DNA from: an uncultured Subdoligranulum sp. | Lineage (GTDB): Bacteria > Bacillota > Clostridia > Christensenellales > CAG-314 | Length of the DNA stretch: 64,000 nucleotides | NCBI GenBank assembly: GCA_964612455.1 | Contig: CAZTCB010000002.1 | Location: 13,809-77,808, forward strand | Direction of reading: 5' to 3' | Shown here: piece after piece, positions 22,076 to 39,211 of the stretch | Numbering within the stretch: the stretch's first letter is position 1 | How the letters are laid out: each line of letters starts with the position of its first letter | Program-made: the position numbers and the translations under genes | The notes under the pieces: generated by a model | Database searches by the model: none | What the model was told of the DNA's origin: nothing | The model's input: the letters and a program-made list of their open reading frames with translations, nothing else

Positions 22076-22227
22076 CCGTTTTTTTAATGCAGTTAAAAAT
22101 CTTTATACACTTATAATCAACTAAGAGATGGTTTTTTTTGATTATAATGTCATCGATGAAACATCGATGGAAAATAAATCGTTTTAATAGTTTCATTTCA
22201 ATAATATTTTGCAGATAGGGAGAAATT

Positions 22228-22920: not shown

Positions 22921-22987
22921 ATTGATTTTTTTTGAGTTGTGCGAATGGAAATAGAAAGATAAAAACTAAGTCAAGTAGGGAGAATAT

Positions 22988-24103
22988 ATGAAAAATTGTA
23001 AAATCAAAATCGAATGTATTTCGGTTATTTTATCCGCAGTTTTATTAATAGGATTTTTGTTGCCTTCATTCCAATTGAGTAATATTTTTGACTTGGGTGT
23101 AAGTGAAAATGTAAGGACGATAACTGCAAATGAGATTTTTAATGTATCCATAGAAGATGAAATTGAACTTTTTTTAAATCAATTTGACGATTACGAATGT
23201 ATAGTAGATGAAGATTTAGAACAAGTATTGGTGCGAGAAACGAAGTGTTTGGATGGTGCTGTAACAGTTTACGAAACTTATATTAATTATATGGCCAATG
23301 AGTTGAGGGCATTTACTGTAATACTTAGGTCATACAATGAGGAGGGCATGTTAGAAACGGAGGATTGTTACGCAGTTCAATTGTATTACGAGACGGAAGA
23401 GGATGAGTATTATATAGTTTTTGGAAATGAGATGATTTCCATAAGCGAGCTTGTCGGAACAGATGTTTTAGAAAATTGTATTGCGATAGCGGATGATATT
23501 GCCGTGTCCGTTGCGTTATTAGCTGTCACGGCGGTGATAGTCTGTCATCCTTACATAAAGACGATAGTTACGACGGTGGTGACTACTGTAGTTAGTTGGG
23601 TTAAGTCGCTTTGGCGTTGGCTCAATGGTGTATTTATTACCAAAAAGGTAACAACTACGACTGTCGAGCCGGTTGTATATTATCGTACAAATATTTTTTC
23701 TCGAGATTTTGAATTAGAAAGAGTTGAAGCAACGGATGTTGCGTGTGAGGTATCGCGTGATGCGGGTGGGTATTATTTGGCTGTTGTGGTTGGCTCAATT
23801 GTATATATTTCGATTGAAACTATAACGGAGAGCGAAGCGGTTGCTGTGCTTGCTTCAAATATTGACGTAAGAATAGAAGAAACAGATTTTCAATTAAATA
23901 CATATACAGCAGGAGAAATGGATGCTGAGAGTATAGCCTTGCAAGCGGCAAATTATAACGGACTTTTGGAAATTACGAGACATACTTATCATAATCGAGG
24001 AGGAACGAAGAAGGGTATCTATTTTGAGCATTATCATCCCGGACCTTCTTATATGCATGGATTGCCGCACAGCTTTTTTGGTGTTCCGATGATAGTGGTA
24101 TAG
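22988..24103 (+). CDS. Hypothetical membrane protein with His-rich C-terminal motif
   Basis: RBS GGGAGA. N-terminal signal anchor, central TM segment (AVSVALLAVTAVIVC...TTVVTTVVSWV), C-terminal FEHYHPGPSYMHGLPHSFFG. Confidence 0.6.
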   Translation: MKNCKIKIECISVILSAVLLIGFLLPSFQLSNIFDLGVSENVRTITANEIFNVSIEDEIELFLNQFDDYECIVDEDLEQVLVRETKCLDGAVTVYETYINYMANELRAFTVILRSYNEEGMLETEDCYAVQLYYETEEDEYYIVFGNEMISISELVGTDVLENCIAIADDIAVSVALLAVTAVIVCHPYIKTIVTTVVTTVVSWVKSLWRWLNGVFITKKVTTTTVEPVVYYRTNIFSRDFELERVEATDVACEVSRDAGGYYLAVVVGSIVYISIETITESEAVAVLASNIDVRIEETDFQLNTYTAGEMDAESIALQAANYNGLLEITRHTYHNRGGTKKGIYFEHYHPGPSYMHGLPHSFFGVPMIVV

Positions 24104-24114
24104 CGGGTACGGGT

Positions 24115-24651
24115 ATGAAAAAGGACATGAATGAGTTATATCGTCGGTTTGTTGACGAGATTGATATGTGGCAGCGGAAAATAGATAGATACAATCAAAA
24201 AAATCATTTGCCGCTTGTGGGAGCAAATAGTAGAACGATTGAGCAAGAAGAAAACATAATTATCAACAAATATGGAGGAAAAAAGTTAAATACAGAGTAC
24301 TTTTACGAGCATTTAACCGATTTTTTCGGCGACAAAGAGTGCGTAGAGTATTATCAACGGGTATCCCCGTGTAAAATAATTTTTGCAAAAACGGAGGAAA
24401 TTATACCTGATGATTATTTTTATTCTTTCTATCTGATTCCGATTGATAGAGCACAAAAAAAAGACGTAAATTATGGTAGAGAGGTAGTTGTTTATATAAC
24501 ATCAAGAGACGGAATAAATGTTTACGTAAGTGGATTTATGAATGAGTACATACTGTCTTCAAGAGAGAATATAAATGAGTTTCATTCGGCGATGTCTTAT
24601 TACGCAGGAGGAATCGCTGTTTATTATCGGGAAATAGAAGACAAAATATAA
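24115..24651 (+). CDS. Hypothetical cytoplasmic protein (possibly SMI1/KNR4-like)
   Basis: Starts 11 nt after the preceding gene. No signal peptide. Only a weak by-eye resemblance to SUKH immunity proteins. Confidence 0.5.
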   Translation: MKKDMNELYRRFVDEIDMWQRKIDRYNQKNHLPLVGANSRTIEQEENIIINKYGGKKLNTEYFYEHLTDFFGDKECVEYYQRVSPCKIIFAKTEEIIPDDYFYSFYLIPIDRAQKKDVNYGREVVVYITSRDGINVYVSGFMNEYILSSRENINEFHSAMSYYAGGIAVYYREIEDKI

Positions 24652-24795
24652 TATTAATATTCGAAATCAAATTGAGGAATATAGATCGACGAGTATTATT
24701 TCATATGTGATTGCTTTACCTCGTAAACGAGTGGTACCGATGACGTACGAGATAAAATCATGGCGATATGAATATGTAAAAATAATGTAAAAGAC

Positions 24796-24824
24796 TTGAC
24801 ATCTCAAAGACTTTATTTTAAAAT
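24796..24824 (+). promoter_or_regulatory. Candidate sigma-A promoter for cassette 1
   Basis: TTGACA, 17 nt spacer, TAAAAT. Confidence 0.5.
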
Positions 24825-24892: not shown

Positions 24893-26005
24893 ATGAAAAG
24901 AACAAAATTGCATGTTTTTACTGCAGTAGCGTTGACCGCGCTTGTTTTATTGTCGGTTGTGTTTTATTGCGATTGCGTGCAGCCTGAAAAAGTATCTGCA
25001 ATAGATAGCGATACTTTTTCGAGTATGACAGAGATTCATTACTATAGTGATTCTGCACCGCGGGTGTCTCCGGCGACCTTTTCGGCAAATTTTACAACGC
25101 CGATACAATATCACTATCTGTTTGACCTTACCGAACAGGATCTTGACGATATGCTTTTAAACGGTGATTTTTCATTCGGTAGCGAGTACACTCTCATTAT
25201 TTTTGAGATAAGGCGCGATATTATTGATGGTAGTGTTTTGGAAAACGTCTTTAGTGAGTTTAAGGCGCATGGTTGCTATATCATTTTTAATAGTGCGTAT
25301 TTTTCGTACGAATACTCTAATACCGATTTTACCAATTACGTAGACGAATTTTTGCTGTGTTCGTTTGATTTTTTCTACTTATTCGTAAAGCAGACCGTAT
25401 TTGATATTTTGAATGTTCAATCGGGTATAGATAATTCATGCATATTGTTGGACGGTAGATGGTTTTCGGACGTGGGTGACTTTAGTGCAGATATGGAGAC
25501 AATGTGCGACTCTTCTCCGTTTTTAAAAATATTAATGCGGCAACTTTGCATACAGTTAGGTATGTCGTACGATAGGGATTATGACGTGATCGTGCAGGAG
25601 TTACGGAGTAGAAATGTACATCTATTGGTAAATATAGGTAACTATATGTATGTTGATTTACTGCACGATACGGATCAAGTGAGTCCGATTATTGTGAGTG
25701 ACGGTATATATATTAATGTACATGAACGTAACGACTTACGTTATTATTTTTCTGGATATACATTGTACGCCATGGGACAATGGAGTTTAGAAAGCGAGTT
25801 TTATCATTTACTCTTAAGTATTCAAGAAACGTCTGGTGATGATGTAGAGGTTTACGTTTTTGAGGTTGATCCGATAGTATACGGTCACGGACTGAGGATA
25901 CATAGTGATACGGATTTAGTTACTTCTTACGGCGGTTATTATAGTCCTGTTGAGTATGAAATAGACATACTCCTTGATGAATTGATTGCCGGTGGATTAA
26001 GATAA
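24893..26005 (+). CDS. Uncharacterised membrane-anchored protein, 'family A' paralog 1
   Basis: AGGAGG RBS and N-terminal TM helix. Shares motifs with 29286-30395 and 35877-36932 (IIFEIRRD, GCYIIF, SSPFLK, HLLVNIG..YVD, VFEVDPIVYGHG). Confidence 0.7.
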   Translation: MKRTKLHVFTAVALTALVLLSVVFYCDCVQPEKVSAIDSDTFSSMTEIHYYSDSAPRVSPATFSANFTTPIQYHYLFDLTEQDLDDMLLNGDFSFGSEYTLIIFEIRRDIIDGSVLENVFSEFKAHGCYIIFNSAYFSYEYSNTDFTNYVDEFLLCSFDFFYLFVKQTVFDILNVQSGIDNSCILLDGRWFSDVGDFSADMETMCDSSPFLKILMRQLCIQLGMSYDRDYDVIVQELRSRNVHLLVNIGNYMYVDLLHDTDQVSPIIVSDGIYINVHERNDLRYYFSGYTLYAMGQWSLESEFYHLLLSIQETSGDDVEVYVFEVDPIVYGHGLRIHSDTDLVTSYGGYYSPVEYEIDILLDELIAGGLR

Positions 26006-26026
26006 AAAGAGATTAGGAGGTTTTTT

Positions 26027-27469
26027 ATGAATAGGATTAAAATAACACGATACGTTGTTCTATTATTACTCGTTTGTTGTCTTTGTCTTGTTTTGGGTGC
26101 TTGTACACCAAACACGCCGGAGCCGACGCCGGAGCCTACACCGACGCCGAGCGAGCCTACTACCGTACAACTCGATGCCCCCGCAAACGTAGTGTTGGAC
26201 GAAAATAACAGACTCAACTGGGACGCGGTAGAAAACGCTGATTTTTACACGATAAAAATCGACGATAAACAATACAAGAGCAAAAACCCGTATTACAACT
26301 TCAGCTCTTACTTGGGTAGGAGTACGACGGTTTATATCAAGGCAACGGGTGACGGCGAGAGTTATACCGATTCCAAATGGACGGTTTTTGAGTATAAGAT
26401 TCCGGCACCGTTAAAGTACAAATTGCTGGATGACGGGAGCGGATACGAAGTCAGCGCGTTGGACGAAACCGACCTCAATCCGGAAGGTTATAGGGGTACG
26501 CTCGTTATCCCCGATTATTACGAAGGATTGCCGGTGACGAAAATCGCAGACGAAGCGTTTTTCTCGCAAAAATCCCCCGACGGTAACAAAGTGACGACTA
26601 CGATACAGTTTCCCGCACAGCTTAAGGTAATAGGACTACACGCGTTTTCCTATTTTAAAGCGTTGGAGTCTATAGAAATACCTGCTTCCGTAACGAAAAT
26701 AGACTATTGGGCATTTTCAGGTTGTACGGCGTTAAAGACAGTCACGTTAAACGATGGTTTACAGACTATTGAGTCGGGGGCGTTTAAGAATTGCTCTGCT
26801 TTAACCAAAATAGTTATCCCTGATACCGTAACGAGTCTGGGCGGCAGTGTGTTTGACGGTTGTACAAAGTTGTCTAAGATTACTTTGTCGGCAAATCTGC
26901 AGGCAATGGGGAGAGATGTATTTGCTAATACCGCTTGGTATACCAAGCAAGCACTCGGCTATGTTGTCTTGCGCGGGGATCTCTTGTACGGATATAAAGG
27001 AGACGTCCCTGCGGTTATCGATGACCTCCCCGAAGAGATAAAGTATATAGGCGGCGGCGCGTTTGCGGAGACTGACCTCGAGTCGATTGTGTTACGCGAC
27101 GGTATGGTTATTTTTGAAGGTGCTTTTTCAAATTGCAAAAAATTAAAAACCGTTCGTTTACCGTCTGATTTAAAAGTGTTGCCGGAGTTTGCGTTTAGCT
27201 ATTGTACGAGTTTAACCGAGTTAATCATTCCGAAAACGGTGACGACGATAGAGACATCCGCACTCCTTGTTTCTGCCAATACAAAAATGTATTATTGCGG
27301 CACGTTGGAGGATTGGGATAAAATAGCCGTGGCAGACAGCTACTTAAAGTCGTACGTCATGTTTTATTCCGAAACCCAACCTACCGATGCGGACAACAAG
27401 TATTGGCATTACGATGCCGACGGCAATAAAGCGGTATGGCAAAAGAAAGAGGAGAATACGACGGAATAA
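26027..27469 (+). CDS. Lipoprotein with Pro/Thr linker, Fn3-like domain and BspA-type leucine-rich repeats (paralog 1)
   Basis: Lipobox LGAC. TPEPTPEPTPTP linker. IP..V..I...AF..C..L repeats. C-terminal YWHYDADGNKAVW motif. Confidence 0.8.
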   Translation: MNRIKITRYVVLLLLVCCLCLVLGACTPNTPEPTPEPTPTPSEPTTVQLDAPANVVLDENNRLNWDAVENADFYTIKIDDKQYKSKNPYYNFSSYLGRSTTVYIKATGDGESYTDSKWTVFEYKIPAPLKYKLLDDGSGYEVSALDETDLNPEGYRGTLVIPDYYEGLPVTKIADEAFFSQKSPDGNKVTTTIQFPAQLKVIGLHAFSYFKALESIEIPASVTKIDYWAFSGCTALKTVTLNDGLQTIESGAFKNCSALTKIVIPDTVTSLGGSVFDGCTKLSKITLSANLQAMGRDVFANTAWYTKQALGYVVLRGDLLYGYKGDVPAVIDDLPEEIKYIGGGAFAETDLESIVLRDGMVIFEGAFSNCKKLKTVRLPSDLKVLPEFAFSYCTSLTELIIPKTVTTIETSALLVSANTKMYYCGTLEDWDKIAVADSYLKSYVMFYSETQPTDADNKYWHYDADGNKAVWQKKEENTTE

Positions 27470-27504
27470 ACATATTGATAGGATAAAATATTTTGATAAA
27501 TCAA

Positions 27505-27546
27505 CACCCCGAAAGCTTTTTTTAAGACTCTCGGGGTGCTTTTTTG
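27505..27546 (+). terminator. Intrinsic terminator after cassette 1
   Basis: CACCCCGA/TCGGGGTG stem followed by CTTTTTT. Confidence 0.55.
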
Positions 27547-27571
27547 TAGTTTGGTTAAGGTAAAAAACGCA

Positions 27572-27613
27572 TGAAAAAAGACTTAAAATCACATCCGATT
27601 CTAAGTCTTTTTT
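27572..27613 (-). terminator. Intrinsic terminator of the tRNA-Gly/tRNA-Cys transcript
   Basis: AAGACTTA/TAAGTCTT stem with a T-run on the minus strand, directly after tRNA-Cys. Confidence 0.55.
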
Positions 27614-27614
27614 C

Positions 27615-27689
27615 TGGAGGCGCCACCCGGAATCGAACCGGGGGATATAGATTTTGCAGACCTTTGCCTTACCGCTTGGCCATGGCGCC
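27615..27689 (-). tRNA. tRNA-Cys (anticodon GCA)
   Basis: GGCGCCA/TGGCGCC acceptor stem, CTGCAAA anticodon loop, CCCGG/TTCGATT/CCGGG T-arm, encoded CCA. Confidence 0.9.
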
Positions 27690-27694
27690 GAATG

Positions 27695-27769
27695 TGGAGC
27701 GGGAGACGGGATTCGGACCCGCGATATCTGCCTTGGCAAGGCAGCGCTCTACCACTGAGCCACTCCCGC
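27695..27769 (-). tRNA. tRNA-Gly (anticodon GCC), atypical T-loop
   Basis: GCGGGAG/CTCCCGC acceptor stem, CTGCC/TTGCCAA/GGCAG anticodon arm, encoded CCA. The T-loop reads TCCGAAT, so position 55 is C rather than U. Confidence 0.85.
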
Positions 27770-27890
27770 GAAATCTAACGCTCGTATATCATAACAAATA
27801 TTATAAAAAAAATCAAGGAATTTAATCCAAATTATTGAAAATTTTTTTTATCTATGATAAACTCTACTTGACCATCAAAAAGGAGAGTAT

Positions 27891-28787
27891 ATGGATAAAT
27901 TTTTTCTTTCTACGGACAGTACTGCGGATTTATACGCACACGAGGTAGACGAGCTACGTTGCGGCTTTTTACCGCTGACGATAACAATCCAGCGCGACGG
28001 CAATACGGAGTTTTTGGCCGACAACTTTACGACGGAAAAACAATATTACGATTTTTACGACGCGCTTAAAGACAAATCGGTATCCATCACGACGTCCAAA
28101 AACAACACTGAGATACATCGCGCTTATTTTGAAAAGCTGGCGAAGGAAGGGCATATGGACGTTTTGCACTTTACTATAGGCTACGGACTCGCCAATACTC
28201 TCGACAACGCGGAGGAGGCGGCGCAACTTGTCAAACAGACTTATCCTGACTTTAATCTCAAGGTCGTGGAGAGTTGTACCACTACCGTCGGTCAGGGTAT
28301 GCTCGTCCGTATCGCGGCAAAACTCAGAGACGAGGGAAAGACTATCGACGAGGTGTACGCTCATTGTCAAGAGGTCAAACATCGTATTCAGCACTTTATC
28401 ATGGTGGACGACTTGTTTTATCTCAAGCGCGGCGGCAGAGTCAGCGGCGCGGCGGCGGCGGTCGGCACCATTATTCAACTGAAAGTAGTCATTACCTTTG
28501 ATAAAGAAGGCAAACTAAAGGTCATCAAAAAGATTCCCGGGGGGAAACGCAAGTGCGAAAAAGCTATCTTTGACGACGTGGATACCTTTACCTTTGACCG
28601 TGACGATTTTTATCCCATCGTGGTGCACACGGGTAACGCGGAGTTTGCCGAGCAGGTTGCGGACGATATTAACGAAAAATACGGTTTTCGCCCCGAGATA
28701 AGGCTCATGGGACCGACTATCTCCTGCCATATCGGTCCGGGCGGTGTGGCGTTTGCCTTTATTGCGAAAGAGCAAAGACCGTATTGA
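27891..28787 (+). CDS. DegV-family fatty-acid-binding protein
   Basis: STDSTADL N-terminus, LRKGGRVS-type motif (LKRGGRVSGAAA), about 298 aa. Confidence 0.9.
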   Translation: MDKFFLSTDSTADLYAHEVDELRCGFLPLTITIQRDGNTEFLADNFTTEKQYYDFYDALKDKSVSITTSKNNTEIHRAYFEKLAKEGHMDVLHFTIGYGLANTLDNAEEAAQLVKQTYPDFNLKVVESCTTTVGQGMLVRIAAKLRDEGKTIDEVYAHCQEVKHRIQHFIMVDDLFYLKRGGRVSGAAAAVGTIIQLKVVITFDKEGKLKVIKKIPGGKRKCEKAIFDDVDTFTFDRDDFYPIVVHTGNAEFAEQVADDINEKYGFRPEIRLMGPTISCHIGPGGVAFAFIAKEQRPY

Positions 28788-28843
28788 CGATTTTAATCGA
28801 TATCGACTGTTGTCGATTGTGGTTAATAAATATGCTAAACGTC

Positions 28844-28875
28844 AGGATTCGGAAAAAACCGAATCCTTTTTTTTA
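28844..28875 (+). terminator. Intrinsic terminator after degV-family gene
   Basis: AGGATTCGG/CCGAATCCT stem plus T8. Confidence 0.8.
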
Positions 28876-29060
28876 ATGTAAAAAGTGTTTTCGTTTCGTA
28901 TCGTGTTGTTTGTCGACCGGGCTTATTTGGTTTTAACGGGCGACTGAGATTAAATTCAGTTTGAGTACTTTTGTTATTTTTGCCGTTTTTGCTAAAAAAA
29001 CACAATATAATTTTTGACAATATTGAGTGAAAAAAACGACATTAAATTTTTAAAAAAGTA

Positions 29061-29089
29061 TTGCATTTTTGTCGTTTTTGATGTATAAT
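29061..29089 (+). promoter_or_regulatory. Candidate sigma-A promoter for cassette 2
   Basis: TTGCAT, 17 nt spacer, TATAAT. Confidence 0.45.
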
Positions 29090-29107
29090 GATAAAAACCG
29101 ATTGGTT

Positions 29108-29194
29108 GCTCGATAAATATAGATGTCGTCCGCTCCGTTAACCGATGGCAACTACCGATATTACGACGGCGACGGCAAACCTGTCAAATGGTGA
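29108..29194 (+). pseudogene. Relic 3' end of a BspA-LRR lipoprotein gene
   Basis: Translates to ..MSSAPLTDGNYRYYDGDGKPVKW*, which matches the C-termini of the three intact lipoproteins. Upstream codons carry in-frame TAA and TAG stops. Confidence 0.55.
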
Positions 29195-29285
29195 CGTCTC
29201 GGTGTCTTTATTGTATCTACGTTTCCCCGTAGTCACGCATATATTGTTGTGATGAAAACAATCAAAAAGGAAAAGGAGATGTATC

Positions 29286-30395
29286 ATGAAGAAAACAAAA
29301 ATGCAAGTCGTCACGGTCATTGTAGTTATTTTACTCTTGTTGATTGTGTCGACGTCCTTAGGTGCGAGTATTCAAAAAGCGCAGGCATATTCGCCTGATT
29401 ATAGCCCGACGCAATACTCGATTTATTACTTTTTTGACTATTATCCGACTTTGGGTAGAGACGTATTGTCTAATACGTTTGGGTATTACAGTGTTTTTTA
29501 CGACGCCCAATGGATTGACAGTGACGAATTTGACTCGCTCGTGACCAACTGGTATTTTAGCGGAATTGCATCCAATACCCTTGCATCCAATACCATAGTA
29601 ATAATCGATATAAAAACTTTTAAACCAGATGCTGATACGTTGGAGCTTTTGTTCTTAAACCTTAAGGTATTTCAGGGTTGTCAGACGATATTTATTACTC
29701 CGTATGAGGAGTACGAGTACGGTGACACTACTTTCGTATCCTGCGTAGACAAGTATTTTGTGACGTATTTTGAAGAAATAAACGTCATGATACGCCAAAT
29801 GTATGACGATAGTTATGACAACTCAGAGGGTGCATTGGCGAATAAAATGTTTTTGCTTGACAACCGTCTGGTAAATGTTACAGGATACAATCAAGGCGCA
29901 CCCATAGAGATTTTACTTGAGTCGTCGCCTTTCTTGCGTGAGCTTTTCAGTGAATATAGCGTAGGCGAAGACATGATGTATGAGAACTATACCGAATTTT
30001 TAACGGATTTGCACAATACCTATAATACGTATTTTCTTGTACACTTGGGCGGAGATGAGTTTGTAGATATTTACGACTGGGTGTTGTATAGAGGCAGTTA
30101 TTTGAGCGAAATGGAGAGTGACAGTGGTTTGAGCAGTGATGTTGCTTGTGCGGTCGGGTTTTGGAACTTAGACGGCGATTTTTACAACTTTATCTGGCGT
30201 TCGCAAATTGAAGCGTCGGCAGATTCGGAAAATAATACGGATTTACGTGCATACGTAATCGACATAGACCCGATTTTGTTAGGGACAGGTCCCGTAGTTA
30301 CGGGGTTTAGCTGGATAGCTAACAGCTATAGTCAATATTTAACGGATAGAAACGATTTGTTGGCATATTTAGACGACATAACAGGAGGAAATTAA
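29286..30395 (+). CDS. Uncharacterised membrane-anchored protein, 'family A' paralog 2
   Basis: GGAGA RBS and N-terminal TM helix. Shared motifs: IYYFFDYY, VIIDIKTFKPD, QGCQTIFIT, SSPFLR, FLVHLGGDEFVDI, VIDIDPILLGTG. Confidence 0.7.
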   Translation: MKKTKMQVVTVIVVILLLLIVSTSLGASIQKAQAYSPDYSPTQYSIYYFFDYYPTLGRDVLSNTFGYYSVFYDAQWIDSDEFDSLVTNWYFSGIASNTLASNTIVIIDIKTFKPDADTLELLFLNLKVFQGCQTIFITPYEEYEYGDTTFVSCVDKYFVTYFEEINVMIRQMYDDSYDNSEGALANKMFLLDNRLVNVTGYNQGAPIEILLESSPFLRELFSEYSVGEDMMYENYTEFLTDLHNTYNTYFLVHLGGDEFVDIYDWVLYRGSYLSEMESDSGLSSDVACAVGFWNLDGDFYNFIWRSQIEASADSENNTDLRAYVIDIDPILLGTGPVVTGFSWIANSYSQYLTDRNDLLAYLDDITGGN

Positions 30396-30397
30396 TA

Positions 30398-32002
30398 ATG
30401 AAAAATTTTAGTAAAAAAACGTGTATAGGTGTACTTTTGGTGTTGGCGGTATTGCTCGTTTTTTCTTTCGCCGGTTGCGAGCCGACGCCCGAGCCTGTGC
30501 CTAATGGTCCCGTTCAACTCGATTATCCGATAAATATAGTTGCCGTCCGTAGACTCCTGACATGGGACGAGGTGAGTCATGCTACCGGTTACGTGGTAGA
30601 ATTTAGGGGCACCGAGTATGAGACTACGGGGTGTAGTCTCGATTTGAGTTTTGATACCGGATACGGCGACGTGGAGATAAAGGTAAAAGCCAAAGGCGAC
30701 GGCACCGACTACAGTGACTCGGAGTGGACGACAAAAACGATAACGTTAAATCAAAAAGTACAAACCGGCAGCGACGAGGCGGGGTTTGAGTACACTCTCT
30801 TGGCTGACGGGAGCGGATACGAAATATCTCTAGGTACCGCCAGCATTAAAGGCGACAAAGGCGTGATTACCATTCCCGAGTATTTTGGCGACTATCCCGT
30901 CAAACGCATAGCCGACAGAATGTTTTATATCAAAGGCGCAAGTTTCCTGACCGGTGTGGGGTGCAACAATCTGACGACAGGGATAATCCTTCCCGAACAG
31001 TTGGAGAGCATAGGGGAGAGAGCATTTATGGCTTTAATCGGGATAGAGTCTATGACTATCCCCAATAGCGTCAAAGATATAGGAGAGGCTGCTTTTTACG
31101 GGTGCGTAAATCTTAAAACCGTCAAGTTGTCTAAAAATCTTAAGACAATCCCCGATAAATGTTTTATGGCTACGGGTTTGGCGCAAATCAATCTGCCAAA
31201 GTCTGTCGAAACGATAGGTGTGCAAGCTTTTGCTGCGAGTGATACGCTCGGTATGAGCGGGACTGAATCAGACCTTAAGGAATTGACAATACCGAGCAAC
31301 GTAAAAAATATAGGAAATTATGCCTTTATGGGGCGAGAAAAATTGGAAACGATAACCCTTAGTGCCGACAACTTGGAAAACTTTGGCATTAAGGTGTTTG
31401 AGGGTACTCGGTGGTATGAAAAACGCGGTGACGGATTGGTCATCCTTTACGGGGTGTTGCTTGGCTACAAGGGTACCGTTCAGTCGGGCTATGTATTGAC
31501 TCTCCCGAGTAGCGTCAAAGTAATAGCGTCTATGGGGCTATCTGTCAGCGGTATAAAAAAGGTAATCATTCCCGACGGTGTGAGATTTGCGGGTGGCGAG
31601 CGTATCTTCGGCTCAGATTTGGAGGAAGTCGTCTTGCCGTCCGACCTGACGTCGATACCGGACAAAGCGTTTTATGCTTGTAGAAGACTCGAGTCGATTT
31701 CGTTGCCGAGTACTTTGACCGATATCGGAGACGAGGCTTTCAAGAGTTCGGGATTAAAGGAGATAGTCATTCCGTCGTCGGTGGTAGAAATCGGCGAAAA
31801 TCCTTTTATCGGTTGTGATAATTTGGAGAGTATTTATTACGACGGCACGTCAAGCGAGTGGAACGCGTTGGTTAAAGAAAACAACGCCGACAATGCGGAT
31901 GCTTTTGCGTCGGCTACGATATATACGTATTCGGCAACAACTCCGACAGACAACGGCAATTACTGGTTTTACGACAGCAACGGCAATCCTATCAAATGGT
32001 AG
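30398..32002 (+). CDS. Lipoprotein with Fn3-like domain and BspA-type leucine-rich repeats (paralog 2)
   Basis: Starts 2 nt after the family A stop codon. Lipobox FAGC. LRR_5-like repeats. C-terminal YWFYDSNGNPIKW. Confidence 0.8.
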   Translation: MKNFSKKTCIGVLLVLAVLLVFSFAGCEPTPEPVPNGPVQLDYPINIVAVRRLLTWDEVSHATGYVVEFRGTEYETTGCSLDLSFDTGYGDVEIKVKAKGDGTDYSDSEWTTKTITLNQKVQTGSDEAGFEYTLLADGSGYEISLGTASIKGDKGVITIPEYFGDYPVKRIADRMFYIKGASFLTGVGCNNLTTGIILPEQLESIGERAFMALIGIESMTIPNSVKDIGEAAFYGCVNLKTVKLSKNLKTIPDKCFMATGLAQINLPKSVETIGVQAFAASDTLGMSGTESDLKELTIPSNVKNIGNYAFMGREKLETITLSADNLENFGIKVFEGTRWYEKRGDGLVILYGVLLGYKGTVQSGYVLTLPSSVKVIASMGLSVSGIKKVIIPDGVRFAGGERIFGSDLEEVVLPSDLTSIPDKAFYACRRLESISLPSTLTDIGDEAFKSSGLKEIVIPSSVVEIGENPFIGCDNLESIYYDGTSSEWNALVKENNADNADAFASATIYTYSATTPTDNGNYWFYDSNGNPIKW

Positions 32003-32023
32003 AGTCGTAGAATAACACTTTAT

Positions 32024-32069
32024 AAAAAAACCAACCCGATACGTTTTACTGTATCGGGTTGGTTTTTTT
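32024..32069. terminator. Bidirectional intrinsic terminator
   Basis: AACCAACCCGATA/TATCGGGTTGGTT stem flanked by an A-run and a T-run. Confidence 0.8.
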
Positions 32070-32144
32070 AGATAAAACCGTTGAGCGGTCGTCTCTGTCG
32101 CGATGAGCAAATTTAAACCGATAATAAAGATAAGATAATAAAGA

Positions 32145-32180
32145 TAAAAAAATATTCACCCGAAAAAAACGAGTGAATAT
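32145..32180 (-). terminator. Intrinsic terminator of rpsT
   Basis: ATATTCAC/GTGAATAT stem with a T-run on the minus strand. Confidence 0.6.
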
Positions 32181-32211
32181 TAGTTTTAAAGATATAAAAA
32201 GCGGGTGGCGA

Positions 32212-32703
32212 TTATTCCGAAACGGTATCGTCGCTCTTTTTAGTCGCTTTTTTGGTCGCCTTTTTGGCGGCAGTCTTTTTAGCGGGTGCTTTTTCGGCTG
32301 CTTTGGCGGCTTCTCTCTCTTTGCGAGCGGTGTTGCGCGACTGTTTAATCGCCTCTGCCTCTTGCGCTTTGCGTTGCGCTGCGGCTTTTTGCTCGGCTTG
32401 TTTGAGAGTCTTGACGTCGGCTTTGACAACCACGACGCCGTTTTTAAGGAGGCTGAGAGCCTTACCTATCTGGGACTTGGCGTGGTTTGCTTTGTTTTTA
32501 TGGATAACGCCCTTTGTAGCGGCGGAATCGATAGCACTGCTTGCGATGGGCAAAAGTCTCTCGGCTTCTTCCGCGTTGTTTTCGGAGATGGCGAGGTTAA
32601 ACTTTTTGACCGCGGTCTTCATTTCGCTGAGAATCATTCTATTTTGAGCTCTCTTTTTGTCGATGACCAAAACTCTTTTTTTAGCGGATTTAATATTTGG
32701 CAT
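32212..32703 (-). CDS. rpsT: 30S ribosomal protein S20 with about 75-aa Lys/Ala/Glu-rich C-terminal extension
   Basis: Canonical S20 N-terminus MPNIKSAKKRVLVIDKKRAQN...HKNKANHAKS. The ORF continues in frame to 163 aa. Confidence 0.9.
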   Translation of the reverse strand: MPNIKSAKKRVLVIDKKRAQNRMILSEMKTAVKKFNLAISENNAEEAERLLPIASSAIDSAATKGVIHKNKANHAKSQIGKALSLLKNGVVVVKADVKTLKQAEQKAAAQRKAQEAEAIKQSRNTARKEREAAKAAEKAPAKKTAAKKATKKATKKSDDTVSE

Positions 32704-32847
32704 ATAAAAATACTCCTTAACCTAATTTTCAACCATAAAATTCTACCATGTAATCTTTTTTTTGGCAAGGATTTTTTAGCAAAATTTTGGTGTTTTTTGC
32801 AATTATTTTTTTGTTCGGCATAAAATTCAGGTGACGGAGGGGGTAAT

Positions 32848-33585
32848 ATGTCGAAAAAATGCGTGGCGGTGATAGACAGCGGCGTTGGCGGATTGAGCGT
32901 ATTGAAAAGGTTGACGGAGGCGTTGCCGAGCGTCGATTTGGTGTACTTTGCCGACAACGCCAATCTGCCTTACGGAAACAAGGGCGTCGCCGAGTTGAGG
33001 GATATAGCGGCGGGCGCGGTAAAAAAGATTTCTGACAGATTTGACGCGGATTTGTTCGTCGTCGCGTGCAACACGCTGACGGCGGCGGCGATAGACGAGT
33101 TGAGAGGTAGGTTTTTAAACAAAATTTTCGTCGGGTGTGAGCCAAACCTCAACGAGCCGCTCAGATTCGGTTTTAAGGATATCCTCGTGTTGTGTACCGC
33201 ATTTACCAAAAACAGCCGCCGTATCAACGAGAGATTTGCCTCGCGTGCGGAGTTTTTGGATATGCCCGAGCTTGCCGAGTTGATAGAAAACGGCGAGTCG
33301 GACGAAAAAATTGCCGCATACGTCGCCGATAGAGCGGGAAAGGCGGCTAAGAGAGCGGATTGCGTTTCGCTCGGTTGTACTCACTATTGTCTTAAAGAAA
33401 AACTCATTTCCGACGCATTGGGATTGCCGACGTTTAGTAGTGTAGAGGGAGTCGTGAGACGTGCGGCGGCTTTGTATCGCGAAATGGGCGGAGCCGAGCA
33501 CGTAGAGGGCGAAAAAACGCGCACCATAGCTTTTTTTTCGTCGGGAAAACGGCTTGATATAGGCATTATAAAGGGGTATATGTAA
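32848..33585 (+). CDS. murI: Glutamate racemase
   Basis: DSGVGGLSVL, ACNTLT and LGCTHY motifs. Confidence 0.9.
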   Translation: MSKKCVAVIDSGVGGLSVLKRLTEALPSVDLVYFADNANLPYGNKGVAELRDIAAGAVKKISDRFDADLFVVACNTLTAAAIDELRGRFLNKIFVGCEPNLNEPLRFGFKDILVLCTAFTKNSRRINERFASRAEFLDMPELAELIENGESDEKIAAYVADRAGKAAKRADCVSLGCTHYCLKEKLISDALGLPTFSSVEGVVRRAAALYREMGGAEHVEGEKTRTIAFFSSGKRLDIGIIKGYM

Positions 33586-33623
33586 AAAAATCCAAAAAAG
33601 TTTTAAAAACTTTACCAAACCAA

Positions 33624-33652
33624 TTGAAAAATACGCAATTTTGTTGTATAGT
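33624..33652 (+). promoter_or_regulatory. Candidate sigma-A promoter for the EF-G gene
   Basis: TTGAAA, 17 nt spacer, TATAGT. Confidence 0.4.
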
Positions 33653-33682
33653 ATACTTATCACTTTTTTAGAGGTATATTGT

Positions 33683-35764
33683 ATGGCAGTATTTAATGCA
33701 AAAAACATTCGCAATATCGCCGTTATCGGACATGGCGGCGAGGGCAAGACAACGTTGATCGAGGCTATACTGTTTAATGCGAAAGCAATAGACAGACAGG
33801 GCAGAGTAGACGACGGCAACACCACCACCGACTTTGATCCGGAAGAAATTAATAAAAAGATTTCTATCAGTATGGCTATTGCCAACTGCGTATATAAAGG
33901 CACAAAGTTTAACTTTCTCGACGTCCCCGGTTTTTTTGACTTTGAGGGTGAGTTCGTACAGGCAATGGCTGTCGCCGATTGCGCGTTGGTAGTCACCGGT
34001 GCGGGCGGCAACCTCACGGTCGGTTGCGAAAAAGCTCTCGATTATTGCGTCGAGCACAGAGTGCCGACTATGATTTTCGTGTCCGACATGGACAAAGAAA
34101 ACAGCAACTACTTTACCACCGTTGAGGCTATCCAGGCAAAGTACGGTACGCGTATCGCTCCTTTGATGTTGCCTTTGATGGAGGGCGGTAAATTTAAGGG
34201 TTATGCCAATATCGCGGACGGCAAGTACTACGCCGTAGGCGCTCACGGCGACAACGGTCAGGATATCCCCGCCGCACTCGCAGCCAAGTTTGAAGAAGTA
34301 AGCGCAGTCGTGCAAGAAAAAGCAGCCGAAAGCGACGAAGAGTTAATGGAGATTTTCTTTGAAAACGGCGCGTTGGAGAAAGACCAGATAGTTAAAGGCA
34401 TCAAGGCGGGCATTTGCGACGGTAGCGCGATAGGCGTATTCGGCGGTAGCGGACTTGTCAATCAGGGCGTGTTTAACCTCATGAACAACCTCATCGGGTT
34501 TATGCCTTCTCCTGCCGACGTGAGACCGGTAAAGGCACATGACGAAAACGGCAACGAGACCGAGATAGTCGCCGACGACAAGGCTCCCGTCGTCCTCAGA
34601 GTATTCAAGACCATCGTCGACCCGTTTGTCGGTCGTATGAACCTCATCAAGGTCATGAGCGGTACGCTTAAGAGCGGCACCACTATCAAAAACGTCACCA
34701 AAGACGGCGATGAAAAAATATCGACGATTTATTTCCTAAGGGGTAAAAAACAAGAGTCAACCGATACTATCTGTGCGGGAGACATGGGCGCGCTGGCGAA
34801 ACTGTCAAACACCACTACGGGCGACACTCTTTGCGAAGGTAAAGCAGTCGTTTTGCCGGAAATCAAGATGCCTAACCCCGTCCTTAATATGGCAGTCTAT
34901 GCCACCAAGAAAGGCGACGAAGACAAGATATTTGCCGGACTGTCCAAACTGAAAGACGAGGATATCAGCTTTACCGTCGTCAAGAACATCGAGACCAACG
35001 AAATGCTCCTTTGCGGCGTCGGCGAAACCCAACTCGACATTCTCTGCCGCAAACTTAAAAACAAGTTTGGCGTAGAGGCAGTGTTGAAAGAACCTCGCAT
35101 AGCTTACCGCGAAACGATAAGAAAGATGGCTGAGGCTGAAGGTAAGCACAAGAAACAGTCGGGCGGTGCAGGTCAGTTTGGTGTTTGTTCCGTCAGGTTT
35201 GAACCGGGCGCGGCAGACGGCGAGTTTGAGTTTGTCGACGCGGTCGTCGGCGGTGCCGTACCTCGTCAGTTTATCCCCGCCGTTGAAAAAGGCTTGAGAG
35301 AAGCGATAAAAGCCGGTGTTTTGGCAGGATATCCGATGGTCAACCTCAAGGCAACTTTGTTTGACGGTAAATATCACCCCGTCGACTCTAAGGAAATCGC
35401 CTTCGTCTCTGCGGCAAAACTCGCTTACGCAGACGGTATCGCGAAAGCCGGTCCCATCTTGCTCGAACCGATTTATTCGTTAAAGATTACCGTTCCCGAG
35501 AGCTTTATGGGTGACATTCTCGGCGACATGAACAAGCGTCGCGGCAGAGTGCTCGGTATGGAGGCTGTGGGCGGCAAACAAGTCATCAGCGCAGAGTGCC
35601 CCCTCGGCGAAATCACCAAGTATGCAACCGATTTGCGTAGCATGACTCAAGGCAGAGGCAGTTACGAACTCGAATTTGCACGCTATGAAGAAGTCCCCGC
35701 AACCAGCGTACCCAAGATTATCGAGGACGCCAAAAAGTTTGCGGCTGAGAAAGACAACGCATAA
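33683..35764 (+). CDS. fusA: Elongation factor G family GTPase (stand-alone copy, not in an str operon)
   Basis: GHGGEGKTT G1 motif, DVPG G3 motif, EF-G domains II-V (HKKQSGGAGQFG). Confidence 0.9.
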   Translation: MAVFNAKNIRNIAVIGHGGEGKTTLIEAILFNAKAIDRQGRVDDGNTTTDFDPEEINKKISISMAIANCVYKGTKFNFLDVPGFFDFEGEFVQAMAVADCALVVTGAGGNLTVGCEKALDYCVEHRVPTMIFVSDMDKENSNYFTTVEAIQAKYGTRIAPLMLPLMEGGKFKGYANIADGKYYAVGAHGDNGQDIPAALAAKFEEVSAVVQEKAAESDEELMEIFFENGALEKDQIVKGIKAGICDGSAIGVFGGSGLVNQGVFNLMNNLIGFMPSPADVRPVKAHDENGNETEIVADDKAPVVLRVFKTIVDPFVGRMNLIKVMSGTLKSGTTIKNVTKDGDEKISTIYFLRGKKQESTDTICAGDMGALAKLSNTTTGDTLCEGKAVVLPEIKMPNPVLNMAVYATKKGDEDKIFAGLSKLKDEDISFTVVKNIETNEMLLCGVGETQLDILCRKLKNKFGVEAVLKEPRIAYRETIRKMAEAEGKHKKQSGGAGQFGVCSVRFEPGAADGEFEFVDAVVGGAVPRQFIPAVEKGLREAIKAGVLAGYPMVNLKATLFDGKYHPVDSKEIAFVSAAKLAYADGIAKAGPILLEPIYSLKITVPESFMGDILGDMNKRRGRVLGMEAVGGKQVISAECPLGEITKYATDLRSMTQGRGSYELEFARYEEVPATSVPKIIEDAKKFAAEKDNA

Positions 35765-35815
35765 TTTAATATTTTTTATCGCAACAGTCCCGATGTTTTT
35801 GAACACGGGACTGTT
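35728..35815. repeat. 88-bp direct repeat, left copy (EF-G 3' end plus terminator hairpin)
   Basis: Identical base-for-base to 38876-38963 by hand alignment. Confidence 0.95.
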
Positions 35816-35876
35816 GTCGAATAGGGGCAAAATATCACTACTCATTTGTTATTAAAAAAATAAAAGGAGAATAGCA

Positions 35877-36932
35877 ATGAAATTTAAAAGTTTAATTCTT
35901 GCAACGATGATTGTGGTAACGTTGTTTGCCGGTGTCATTGTTGTCGGTATGCCGCAAAATGAAGCAAAAGCTCTTTCGTCGGAATACCACGGTGAGCCGG
36001 ATACTATTTATTACTTTTATGATTTTTATCAGTCTATCGAAGAAATGTCGTTGATGACGGCATTTGTCGGATACAATGTAGTTTTCGACCATAATGGCTC
36101 GTTGGGATCCGATTTTACTCAGTTGGTAAATCAGAATTATTTCGATAATTTTGGTGACAATTGCGTTGTTGTTATAGATATAAAGTCATTTTTGCCTGAT
36201 TGTAATATTTTAATGCAATTGTTTATGGAACTTAAAATGGAACAAGGGTGTACGACTATATTTGTAACCTTGTTTGATAAAACGGATTTTGAAAATCAAT
36301 CGTTTTTAACTTACTTGGATATGTACTTTAAGAGCGATGCTAACAGATTGTATGATTTATGTGATGGCTCCGTCGAGTATTTGATAAATAATAACGGAGG
36401 ATTGAATAATACAACTATATTGATAGATAGAAATCTGGTAGATATTAACACGCACTACGGTGCTCCCATTAGCGTGTTATGTGAGGATTCGTTTTTTTTA
36501 AAGCAATTGTTGTCCACCATAGGTGAGGCTTTGTCACTCGGAGAAGATTATGACGTTGAATATCAATTATGCAATTATCGCAATATAAGACTGCTTGTGC
36601 ATTACGGCACTTGTCAATTTGTGGATATTATTAGCTGGAATACTTATACTGCGCATACGATAGACGCATTGGAAGAAAATGTAAACATATCATGGAATTA
36701 TATATGCGGTATCGGGGCTTGGTATCTGAATCAACATTTTTATGATTTCTTGCTTGATGCTCAAACAAAAATTACTTTGCCGGTGTTTGTCATAGAAGTC
36801 GATCCGATTGTGTTTGGCAATGGTTTGACTGCTATCGTGTACGGTGCATGTGAAGATTGCGATACAAGTTACAACGATGGCAAAACTTTCTTGGATGCGC
36901 TGTACGAAATCTTATATCCTACCGGGGAATAA
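35877..36932 (+). CDS. Uncharacterised membrane-anchored protein, 'family A' paralog 3
   Basis: AAGGAG RBS and N-terminal TM helix. Shared motifs: IYYFYDFY, VVIDIKSFLPD, QGCTTIFVT, DSFFLK, LLVHYGTCQFVDI, VIEVDPIVFGNG. Confidence 0.7.
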   Translation: MKFKSLILATMIVVTLFAGVIVVGMPQNEAKALSSEYHGEPDTIYYFYDFYQSIEEMSLMTAFVGYNVVFDHNGSLGSDFTQLVNQNYFDNFGDNCVVVIDIKSFLPDCNILMQLFMELKMEQGCTTIFVTLFDKTDFENQSFLTYLDMYFKSDANRLYDLCDGSVEYLINNNGGLNNTTILIDRNLVDINTHYGAPISVLCEDSFFLKQLLSTIGEALSLGEDYDVEYQLCNYRNIRLLVHYGTCQFVDIISWNTYTAHTIDALEENVNISWNYICGIGAWYLNQHFYDFLLDAQTKITLPVFVIEVDPIVFGNGLTAIVYGACEDCDTSYNDGKTFLDALYEILYPTGE

Positions 36933-36934
36933 TT

Positions 36935-38776
36935 ATGAAAAAGAGATTTTTGTTATTTATTGCGGTTGTTTGTTTTGTGGCTCTTTTGGGTTGTCTTGTG
37001 GCGTGTGCCGAAAAAGAACCCGACGATGATCCGAGAGCTTTGTCTTTGGCAGCACCTGAAAAGCTCAGCGCAGAGGGGAGAGTTGTTATATGGAAGGCGG
37101 TCGAAAATGCCGTCGGATACGTCGTCAATTTTGAAAGAAACGATTATGAAACGACGTCAACTACGTTTAATTTGTTTTTTAGCGATGCCGAGGGAGAATT
37201 AGAACTCTCTGTTAGAGCGATAGGCGACGGTATTAACTATACAAATTCCGATTGGTCGACTACGCACGTTACGTTGAGCAAAAAGGTGACTCAAGCACGC
37301 GATGATTCGGGGCTATTGTATACGCTTTTGTCGGATAGAGAGGGATATGAGGTTTCGTATGGTACTCCTGATAGTAGAAAAGGTAAAATCGTTATTCCTG
37401 ACTTTTTTGCCGACCTTCCCGTTACGCGAATCGCCGATTATGGCTTTGGTGATTTTAGGACAGACGTCAATCCGCTTAAAGAAATAAATTGCAATACGGT
37501 GACGACCGGGGTTGTCTTTCCCAAGTATCTCAAAACTATAGGCGTCGGGGCATTTTATTGCTGTGTAAGGCTTGCCGACGTCGGAGCTATTCCTGATACT
37601 GTAACGGAAATTTGCGGAGGAGCTTTTAGCGGTTGTACGCATTTGACAAGTATTGCGCTACCTAAAGGTTTGAAAGAAATTCCCGCAAATTGTTTTAAGA
37701 ATACGGCACTCGCCGAGATTGTTTTGCCGGAGCAACTGGAACGCATATGCGATCAGGCGTTTTATTGTCAATATCTGACACCTACCAATGAACATTGTTA
37801 TTCTGAGCTTTCAGAGGTAGTTATACCGGAGTCGGTGCAATATATCGGTATCGGTGCGTTTTATGGGCGCGAAAAGCTAAAGACGATAACAATGTCAGAC
37901 AAAGTGGATTTAAGAAGAGGAGCTTTAGACAAGACGCTGTGGTATGAAAATCAACCGAACGGGTGTGTGTATTTAGGTACCATTTTGTATTCTTACAAAG
38001 GCGAGATGCCCGAAAACTGTGAGCTGACGATAGATTTTGCTACCACTAAAGCAATAGGAGATATGGCGTTTGCGGGGCAAAAAAATCTTAAGAAGATATA
38101 CGTAGAGGATGGCGTAAAGTTTTTGGGTGAATGTACGTTTTCTTCCTGCTCGTCGTTGAGCGAGGTGCGGTTGCCGTCGGACATGACGTCGATACTTTTG
38201 GGAATGTTCGGCGTTTGCGAAAGTCTTAAGTCGATAGAACTGCCAAAAACAGTATCGTTTATTGATATCGGAGCTTTTAGCGGTTCCGGGTTAGAAACCA
38301 TTTATATTCCGTCCGGCGAAATAGAAGACAGGGCTTTTATTGGCTGTGTGGCATTAAAAGAAGCAGTATTGGCGGACGGTGTCGAGTATTTAGGGAGAGA
38401 AGCGTTTAAAGATTGTACTGCCTTGACGAAAGTAGTTTTGCCTGATACGTTAAAAAGTATAGGAGTGCTTGCTTTTTCGGGGTGTAACTCTCTCGAGACG
38501 GTTAAGATTCCGTCGTCGGTGATTGCTCTCGGCGCCGAGCCTTTTGCATCGTGTGAAAAATTGACAGAGGTTTACTATTGCGGTAATTTCGAACAGTGGG
38601 AGACTCTTTTGTATAGCAACAACAAAGATAAAAAAGATGCTTTTTCATCGGCAACGGTTTATTTTTATTCCGCAACGCAACCGTCTAATAATGGTAACTA
38701 TTGGCATTACGACGGTAGTGGCAATAGTATAAAATGGAATGGTCCTGCGGACGATACAATCGATAAAGAGGATTGA
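36935..38776 (+). CDS. Lipoprotein with Fn3-like domain and BspA-type leucine-rich repeats (paralog 3)
   Basis: Starts 2 nt after the family A stop codon. Lipobox LVAC. LRR_5-like repeats. C-terminal YWHYDGSGNSIKW. Confidence 0.8.
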   Translation: MKKRFLLFIAVVCFVALLGCLVACAEKEPDDDPRALSLAAPEKLSAEGRVVIWKAVENAVGYVVNFERNDYETTSTTFNLFFSDAEGELELSVRAIGDGINYTNSDWSTTHVTLSKKVTQARDDSGLLYTLLSDREGYEVSYGTPDSRKGKIVIPDFFADLPVTRIADYGFGDFRTDVNPLKEINCNTVTTGVVFPKYLKTIGVGAFYCCVRLADVGAIPDTVTEICGGAFSGCTHLTSIALPKGLKEIPANCFKNTALAEIVLPEQLERICDQAFYCQYLTPTNEHCYSELSEVVIPESVQYIGIGAFYGREKLKTITMSDKVDLRRGALDKTLWYENQPNGCVYLGTILYSYKGEMPENCELTIDFATTKAIGDMAFAGQKNLKKIYVEDGVKFLGECTFSSCSSLSEVRLPSDMTSILLGMFGVCESLKSIELPKTVSFIDIGAFSGSGLETIYIPSGEIEDRAFIGCVALKEAVLADGVEYLGREAFKDCTALTKVVLPDTLKSIGVLAFSGCNSLETVKIPSSVIALGAEPFASCEKLTEVYYCGNFEQWETLLYSNNKDKKDAFSSATVYFYSATQPSNNGNYWHYDGSGNSIKWNGPADDTIDKED

Positions 38777-38836: not shown

Positions 38837-38888
38837 CTCAATAATGAAAAAAAATTAAAAGATTTTGTTATATCTCGCCAAAAAGTTT
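38837..38888. repeat. 52-bp module-end repeat, copy A
   Basis: Matches 43246-43297 with 2 mismatches. Its last 13 nt (CGCCAAAAAGTTT) are also the first 13 nt of the 88-bp repeat. Confidence 0.9.
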
Positions 38889-38963
38889 GCGGCTGAGAAA
38901 GACAACGCATAATTTAATATTTTTTATCGCAACAGTCCCGATGTTTTTGAACACGGGACTGTT
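38876..38963. repeat. 88-bp direct repeat, right copy (orphan EF-G 3' end plus complete terminator)
   Basis: Identical to 35728-35815. Here the hairpin is followed by a T-run. Confidence 0.95.
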
Positions 38964-39211
38964 TTTTACCTTTTTAAATACGTCTTTCTAAAAAAAATAG
39001 GTCGTTTCGTCATATTGTAATAAATAATACGCAGAAACCGGAAGTGTGAGAATAATATCATGATTATTTTATCAGATATTCACCTATCTTTTCTTTCTGA
39101 ATTGTCATGTATATAGAGAGAAAAATAATATGGAAAAAGACGCGACTAAAATACGAAAGGGTGCTTTGGTCGAAATATAATTTATTGCTGACAACGGAGG
39201 TAAAAGAAAAA

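Follow-up and report, generated by a model that had tools for sequence, protein, structure and literature searches.

Proteins with leucine-rich repeats (LRR) of the BspA type, the LRR_5 class, are the main adhesin candidates in many host-associated microbes. The family to which BspA of Tannerella forsythia and LrrA of Treponema denticola belong has been linked with attachment to host proteins and other cells, and the LRR_5 solenoid is a classic macromolecule-binding scaffold. Another kind of LRR protein is represented by the lipoprotein Slr of Streptococcus pyogenes and by Blr, its counterpart in group B Streptococcus, which have internalin-type LRRs rather than LRR_5 and a different N-terminal domain. 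Both act as adhesins, and Slr is reported to bind collagen I (PMC3105044). The locus described here lies in a stretch of 64,000 nucleotides from an uncultured gut Subdoligranulum sp. (Clostridia, Christensenellales-like; contig CAZTCB010000002.1, positions 13,809 to 77,808; hereafter the window), in which the same pair of genes occurs at three separate places. In each pair, the upstream gene encodes a predicted exported protein of what we call family A and the downstream gene, B, a predicted lipoprotein with LRR_5 repeats. Our favoured, still tentative reading, to which we assign a probability of about 0.4, is that the A-B cassette is a bicistronic operon for a two-protein surface module in which A is held by the neighbouring B.

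The initial annotation of the window had placed three A-B pairs in it and taken them for strongly diverged paralogs, and both points stand. The list of open reading frames (ORFs) reproduces the coordinates (Table 1) and, when the six proteins were compared with the window by tblastn, the A paralogs were found to be 26-32% identical (E 1e-17 to 1e-44) and the B paralogs 33-40% identical (E 1e-49 to 1e-92), a similarity that is real and far above chance. No copy of A beyond A1, A2 and A3 was detected by tblastn in the window, where the sole further similarity was a weaker one, to a 1795-aa LRR_5 ORF (52052-57439). A1 is the most diverged of the three, and the conserved sequence blocks that had been claimed for A, clear in the alignments of A2 and A3, are degenerate in A1, an ortholog of which (P0002, 97% identical) is found in a related strain. 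Two start codons had to be chosen. For A1 we took the ATG at 24893, the likely start since AGGAGG lies upstream of it, although the listed GTG ORF begins at 24833, and for B3 the ATG at 36935, which yields a lipoprotein signal, instead of the TTG at 36857, inside A3, that the ORF lister used. The two genes are thus 21 nt apart in A1/B1 and 2 nt apart in both A2/B2 and A3/B3, B1 and B2 are each preceded by GGAGG, and in none of the three pairs is A separated from its B by a terminator-like site.

Family A had been presented as a protein without recognisable family and this has held up, A1-A3 having no significant match in Pfam, NCBIfam, PHROGs, PADLOC or among PDB sequences. A word-indexed homology search with A yielded A3 of the window itself, a strain variant of A1 and nothing else, while HMMER, run exhaustively on 1.84 billion representatives, brought up 198 family A clusters at 50% identity, 107 of them at E < 1e-30. 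Most members are 340-375 aa long; a subgroup of 440-500 aa, with an insertion between the two lobes described below, has no Pfam match either. When 100 members were scanned singly, no Pfam family was matched by more than two of them and no NCBIfam family by more than one. The few named members, one of them from a Christensenellales metagenome-assembled genome (MAG), are all called 'hypothetical protein', and no functional name was found among the members examined. Judged by these sequence comparisons, family A is a real protein family that matches no described one. The only hint of a relative was a set of weak PDB sequence matches to a response regulator (E 0.24-0.4), together with a motif, VIIDIK.F.PD...L..LF..LK, that locally resembles the receiver motif DLVLLD..MPGMDGLELL..LR. 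A CheY-like receiver in the first lobe was rejected, since hhalign against nine REC domains gave a probability of 4.9%, and in a different region. The likeness is confined to the local motif, A is predicted to be extracytoplasmic, and we do not treat the receiver as a relative.

At its N-terminus, A has a K-rich segment followed by a hydrophobic helix of ~18 residues, downstream of which alanine occupies position -3 in 72 of 100 members (V in 15, T in 7) and position -1 in 91 of 100, as given by column statistics. Because this A-x-A follows the hydrophobic segment throughout the family, a cleaved Sec signal peptide is more likely than a permanent anchor. Of the N-terminal transmembrane helix seen in the initial annotation, the hydrophobic segment therefore remains, whereas its role as a lasting membrane anchor probably does not. 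Mature A would be ~335 aa long and is rich in Tyr and Phe (Tyr 8-10%). Its pI is ~4.05, and most copies carry a net charge of about -35 to -50, the least charged one -20. An AlphaFold2 model of A2, built on a 100-sequence alignment, is confident (predicted local distance difference test score, pLDDT, 91.1; predicted template modelling score, pTM, 0.86), while a 3-sequence alignment gave a pLDDT of 52. The model consists of a helix (2-25), a disordered linker (27-43) and two α/β lobes (~45-195 and 207-365), between which no internal duplication was detected (hhalign probability 0.4%). In the 100 sequences, the conserved residues of the N-lobe (D51, D73, D108, K110, C132, D155 and D192) fall at or near strand ends of the model, and S214, D261, G291 and G335 are conserved in the C-lobe.

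A structural comparison of this confident model, as the initial annotation had recommended, revealed no convincing neighbour. Foldseek against the PDB gave nothing above a template modelling (TM) score of 0.41, a value that differing hinge angles could lower, and matched only generic two-lobed Rossmann-like proteins (best E-value 1e-3); against BFVD there was no structural match. The highest probabilities were obtained with 3h75 (probability 0.93, TM 0.38/0.41, E 1.4e-2), GGBP 2hph (0.89) and LsrB 1tm2 (0.82), and matches of similar strength with ATCase, GDH, D-2-hydroxyacid dehydrogenases and PleD. PorX, like PleD a tandem-REC protein, is also among the Foldseek matches. From sequence and model together, A is probably an exported, and probably released, very acidic two-lobed α/β protein.

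The assignment of B to the BspA-type proteins is borne out by Pfam, in which LRR_5 (PF13306) scores 164.5, 189 and 231.5 bits for B1, B2 and B3, against a gathering cut-off of 27.7, and is also found in B orthologs at other loci. The lipoboxes reported earlier, LGAC in B1, FAGC in B2 (with a non-canonical Phe at -3) and LVAC in B3, are all present as read from the sequence, and a lipobox is found in every printed B ortholog from other loci that has a complete N-terminus, so that B1-B3 are predicted to be bacterial lipoproteins of the lipobox type. The lipobox is followed by a Pro/Thr linker, an Fn3-like domain of ~85 aa, the LRR_5 repeats and a C-terminal motif. The N-terminal domain (L.AP.N....L.WD.V..A.GY.V...YE....F.L......Y...V.A.GDG..Y.DS.W), proposed as Fn3-like in the initial annotation, is a plausible but marginal case. 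Pfam fn3 has no match in B at E <= 1, while an 11-sequence profile of the domain has as its top PDB match residues 873-943 of 6m76, an Enterococcus faecalis GH31 enzyme (E 0.01), which we take to be the FN3 domain of that enzyme, and weaker ones (E 0.3-2) that include Fn3 chains such as IL-10R beta and 1wj3.

The C-terminal motif Y-W-x-Y-D-x-x-G-N-x-x-x-W (YWHYD..GN...W in B1) is invariant in the three copies, as had been noticed. Its supposed resemblance to a cell-wall or choline-binding repeat is not supported by profiles, CW_binding_1 finding no match in full-length B at E <= 1 nor, at E <= 5, in the last ~80 aa of five B proteins. Another candidate that was set aside is HupY/LrrG (NF047961), the top NCBIfam match of B1-B3, whose scores of 60.6-95.9 bits are far under the equivalog cut-off of 1250 and reflect the repeats only. 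The same C-terminal motif (GNFWHYVDGVPTAW) ends a 414-aa lipoprotein at another locus (L006, 156-1400) that matches the B profile weakly (103 bits). The motif may be a separable module and not part of the B-type LRR architecture.

About 50 A loci were collected by scans of species-representative genomes and metagenomes with an A pattern and by look-ups of single members. They come from MAGs of gut Clostridia and from gut metagenomes (labels human, sheep colon and 'Lapin', that is rabbit), with organism labels that include Christensenellales, Clostridiales, Eubacteriales and 'Subdoligranulum sp.'. Hidden Markov models (HMM) of A and B were run on all the ORFs of these loci, and clustering of A at 70% identity gave ~20 independent lineages, including loci from later look-ups. 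In each of these ~20 lineages, A is directly followed on the same strand by a B-type gene, by the start of an ORF with a lipobox where the contig ends (L042 and L044) or by a relic of the B C-terminus (the L029 type). No third gene is conserved near the pair across the loci compared. The spacing ranges from a 4-nt overlap (-4 nt) to +56 nt; the translational coupling suggested by the 2-nt gaps of A2/B2 and A3/B3 is therefore not a fixed property of the cassette, although those gaps themselves are real.

Starting from B, the picture is similar. Of three loci picked via B, two (L051 and L052) have a long-form A directly upstream (HMM scores 209 and 159 bits), and the third, L050, is the L039 locus of a Christensenellales MAG (95-97% nucleotide identity) without A. 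Where L039 has A and the opening ~140 nt of B (9776-11225), L050 has a stretch of 141 bp (4987-5127). Since L050 retains an intact B, the A-B association is very strong but not absolute. Nor are LRR_5 proteins in general accompanied by A, as illustrated by the 1795-aa LRR_5 protein of the window (52052-57439; 219 bits, with a weak match to a phage tail-tip fibre, E 9e-4), next to which there is no family A gene.

The two genes have also diverged together. By a Mantel test, the pairwise identities of A are correlated with those of the B next to it (r 0.48, p ~0.004), and the best outside match of both A2 and B2 is one and the same Christensenellales locus, L039 (40% and 50% identity), which ranks above the paralogs in their own genome. 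The cassettes were therefore duplicated as units before the species split. The claim that the pairing is fixed and old is thus well supported by the adjacency in ~20 lineages and by this co-divergence; A matches no characterised family and its adjacency to B is conserved elsewhere. A diverges faster than B (mean pairwise identity 27% vs 39%). Between near-identical strains, the ratio of non-synonymous to synonymous substitution rates (dN/dS) ranges from 0.23 to 0.43 in A and from 0.19 to 0.47 in B, compared with 0-0.18 for recR, dnaX, degV, rpsT and other neighbours. A and B are functional genes under purifying but relaxed selection, fast-evolving as is typical of exposed proteins. In some contigs from human gut metagenomes, A is split by a frameshift (L035/L036, 6001-7045) or cut to 267 aa (L013/L015), which may be population-level pseudogenisation or an assembly error.

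Table 1. Positions in the window of the three A-B cassettes and of the signals, relic and repeats around them
Feature	Position	Strand	Basis or remark
Sigma-70-like promoter candidate 5' of A1	24796..24824	+	TTGACA-17-TAAAAT, 11/12 matches, consensus match only
A1, family A protein, 370 aa	24893..26005	+	ORF list, alignments, tblastn
B1, predicted LRR_5 lipoprotein, 480 aa	26027..27469	+	Pfam, alignment
Hairpin with 19-bp stem 3' of B1	27573..27614		Likely bidirectional terminator, shared by B1 with the tRNA genes
Relic of a B-type C-terminus (PLTDGNYRYYDGDGKPVKW, then stop), between degV and A2	29135..29194	+	~90 nt upstream of A2; repeat family D3
A2, family A protein, 369 aa	29286..30395	+	Copy used for the AlphaFold2 model
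B2, predicted LRR_5 lipoprotein, 534 aa	30398..32002	+	Pfam, alignment, tblastn
Hairpin after B2, at the rpsT end	32151-32181		May serve both genes
Perfect 88-nt direct repeat, left copy	35728..35815	+	Family D2
A3, family A protein, 351 aa	35877..36932	+	ORF list, alignments, tblastn
B3, predicted LRR_5 lipoprotein, 613 aa	36935..38776	+	Pfam, alignment, tblastn
Perfect 88-nt direct repeat, right copy	38876..38963	+	Family D2

Several features of Table 1 speak of a locus in flux. The relic motif is present only at the ends of B2 and B3 and upstream of A2 (29135-29194), with no occurrence in 200 shuffles, and the upstream copy is the remnant of a decayed B gene. Loci of the L029 type mirror this arrangement, with an intact upstream B and a downstream B reduced to a relic. 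The 88-nt repeats consist of the last ~34 nt of an EF-G-like gene and of an inverted repeat, rich in G+C and with a T run behind it, which we read as the terminator of that gene; the hairpin and T run found 3' of B3 lie within the right copy. They bracket a 3148-bp unit that contains A3-B3, which suggests insertion, duplication or excision through recombination. In a strain of 95.7% identity, a Logan contig (L045) begins inside the left copy and stops at the start of the right one. A further, near-identical element of ~50 nt (CTCAATAATGAAAAAA.ATTAAAAGATTTTGTT.TATCTCGCCAAAAAGTTT), for which no copies are expected by chance, occurs just left of the right 88-nt repeat (38838-38888) and again at 43247-43297, downstream of an SBP_bac_5 gene (41643-43241).

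The cassettes sit among housekeeping genes, as stated in the initial annotation. The tRNA-Cys and tRNA-Gly genes were seen, as were degV and rpsT (DegV and ribosomal protein S20 as labelled by Pfam on L046, a contig of a near-identical strain), while murI and the EF-G gene are glutamate-racemase-like and EF-G-like ORFs assigned by eye. A riboswitch or other RNA element was sought in the ~500-nt gap between degV and A2 (28788-29285), but Rfam detected no regulatory RNA, only the tRNAs; what the gap contains is the B relic. The degV/tRNA-Gly(GCC)/tRNA-Cys(GCA) group that lies beside the cassette in the window (27615-28787) lies beside it also in the species of L017/L029 (1671-3200), in which A is only ~21-29% identical and the cassette is inverted relative to the window. 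This shared site may be either an ancient position or a tRNA-adjacent hot spot of recombination. In a strain of 96-98% identity (L001), A1 comes straight after recR, and the 2.6-kb segment that lies upstream of cassette 1 in the window (22085-24724) is missing. Encoded in this segment are a trypsin-like peptidase (22228-22920) and two proteins without family match, a membrane protein of 371 aa (22988-24103) and one of 178 aa (24115-24651). Just downstream of cassette 3 (39107-41611) lies the gene of an 834-aa protein with a Flg_new Listeria-Bacteroides repeat and an RCC1-like beta-propeller (WD40_RLD, 274 bits), which has an N-terminal hydrophobic segment ending in LLSSC, lipoprotein-signal-like by eye, and is probably a further surface protein.

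How might A and B work together? In the two-protein module that we favour, the cell is a Gram-positive gut anaerobe, and B would be fixed in the outer leaflet of its membrane by the lipid anchor and would project a short linker, the Fn3-like stalk and an LRR_5 solenoid available for binding macromolecules. A would be exported by Sec, probably freed by signal peptidase I at A-x-A, and would act as the cognate partner of the adjoining B or Bs. Most plausibly it would be bound non-covalently to B and so kept at the surface, given that mature A itself lacks an anchor. Together they could form a heteromeric adhesin or receptor module whose paralogs have diversified in specificity or antigenic type. 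Such a module would account for an adjacency that holds in every A lineage, for the joint duplication and divergence of the two genes and for their similar selective regimes; the physical A-B complex, the cleavage of the signal peptide and any ligand are what we infer beyond these. Several points weigh against it. Cleavage at A-x-A is judged by sequence pattern only. Both proteins are acidic, which does not favour simple electrostatic docking. The A:B stoichiometry varies between loci, with A-B-B (L006), A-B-B-B (L008) and B-A-B (L043, L035 and L013) arrangements. Finally, the B of L050 is intact behind the same promoter region and has acquired a new lipoprotein signal, so that A is not needed in cis to keep B. 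A more ambitious version, in which A would be a structurally new class of secreted, highly acidic two-lobed proteins forming a specific heteromeric complex with Fn3-LRR_5 lipoproteins, and the pair a new two-component adhesin or receptor system at the surface of Christensenellales and related gut Clostridia whose A/B paralogs co-diversify in specificity, seems to us possible but rather doubtful.

The fold of A invites a different view, in which A would be an extracytoplasmic enzyme or a Venus-flytrap-like ligand binder acting on or capturing what B recruits, such as a host or dietary glycan or a nutrient, and no stable complex would be required. Two Rossmann-like lobes suggest a cleft, type I periplasmic sugar-binding proteins receive the top Foldseek probabilities, the conserved polar residues D51, D73, D108, K110, D155 and D192 lie where the strands of the N-lobe end or close by, the usual place of active or binding sites in α/β folds, and a high Tyr/Phe content is common in carbohydrate-binding sites. 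However, the structural matches are weak (E >= 1e-3, TM <= 0.41) and spread over folds as unrelated as those of ATCase, GDH and PleD, no sequence family matches A, the neighbourhood has no conserved transporter or enzyme partner, and a divergence faster than that of B would be unusual for an enzyme with a fixed substrate, all of which makes this view unlikely. The initial annotation had instead thought of A as an anchor or chaperone. An anchor is unlikely when B carries its own lipid anchor and A a signal-peptidase-type A-x-A. As for a dedicated helper in the maturation, folding or export of B, acting transiently at the membrane through an uncleaved signal, the order of the genes, A then B and often tight (2-nt gaps or overlaps), would suit it, as would the single A ahead of several Bs in L006 and L008 and the fact that copies of A never exceed those of B within a locus. 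It is a poor fit nonetheless, and we consider it distinctly improbable, because A evolves faster than its supposed client with a similar dN/dS, every diverged B of the window keeps its own diverged A, one strain (L050) keeps an intact B after deletion of A, the conserved A-x-A speaks for a protein that leaves the membrane, and A resembles no known foldase.

One may also ask whether A and B need each other at all, or are independent variable surface or secreted proteins that are merely co-regulated and co-inherited in a contingency or antigen-variation locus. Turnover is indeed frequent, as witnessed by the B relic before A2, by the relic after A in the L029 type where L035 has a full B, by the frameshifted or truncated A genes of L035/L036 and L013/L015 and by the 88-nt repeats around A3-B3. 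Moreover, cassettes occupy different chromosomal sites in related genomes and dN/dS is raised in both genes. Yet the A-then-B order is conserved and adjacency persists down to ~20-25% identity of A and in all the lineages sampled, which is hard to achieve without selection on the pair, and we give this possibility little credence. The repeats, the dispersed copies and a neighbourhood that varies between strains could also betray a selfish or mobile module, such as a phage receptor-binding, exclusion or toxin-immunity pair, but no integrase or transposase lies nearby, BFVD offers no structural match, a distant species has the same degV/tRNA-Gly/tRNA-Cys setting and both genes are under purifying selection. 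With zero PADLOC or PHROG matches, a defence-system or phage origin was rejected, and a selfish or mobile module is very improbable.

If A is the obligatory, co-evolving partner of B, then a subclass of LRR_5 proteins works as a two-protein module, with an interaction, a structure and a ligand to target, and ~200 orphan protein clusters gain a name and a context. This would matter because the surface biology of Christensenellales and related uncultured gut Clostridia is almost unknown. Independently of this, the A-B loci illustrate how a repertoire of surface proteins turns over, through relics, deletions and repeat-flanked units. The cassette does not overturn current understanding; it is a conserved and uncharacterised module in an understudied gut clade.

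Among known systems, type I periplasmic binding proteins recall the A model in having two α/β lobes of similar size. However, 3h75, LsrB (1tm2) and GGBP (2hph) match it at TM 0.30-0.41, E >= 4.6e-3 and 6-9% identity, with no sequence-profile match, and since other folds match as strongly, a generic fold class appears to be all that they share with A. With HupY/LrrG of group B Streptococcus, B has the LRR_5 repeat type alone in common. With BspA and LrrA, B shares strong LRR_5 repeats and a predicted surface exposure. It is unlike them in that it is predicted to be a lipoprotein of a Gram-positive bacterium, has an Fn3-like stalk at the N-terminus and bears a C-terminal NYWHYD..GN...W cap. We know of no A-type partner gene described for BspA or LrrA, nor of a conserved upstream secreted partner of Slr or Blr, and the literature searched described no LRR_5 lipoprotein whose obligate secreted partner is encoded upstream and, on partners of LRR_5 proteins or LRR lipoproteins in Clostridia or Christensenellales, offered nothing relevant beyond Slr. 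Slr and Blr are what B resembles in its mode of display, all being lipid-anchored LRR proteins, by prediction in the case of B, at a Gram-positive surface. B is a new subfamily of BspA-type LRR_5 surface proteins and in function would be comparable to Gram-positive LRR lipoproteins like Slr and Blr.

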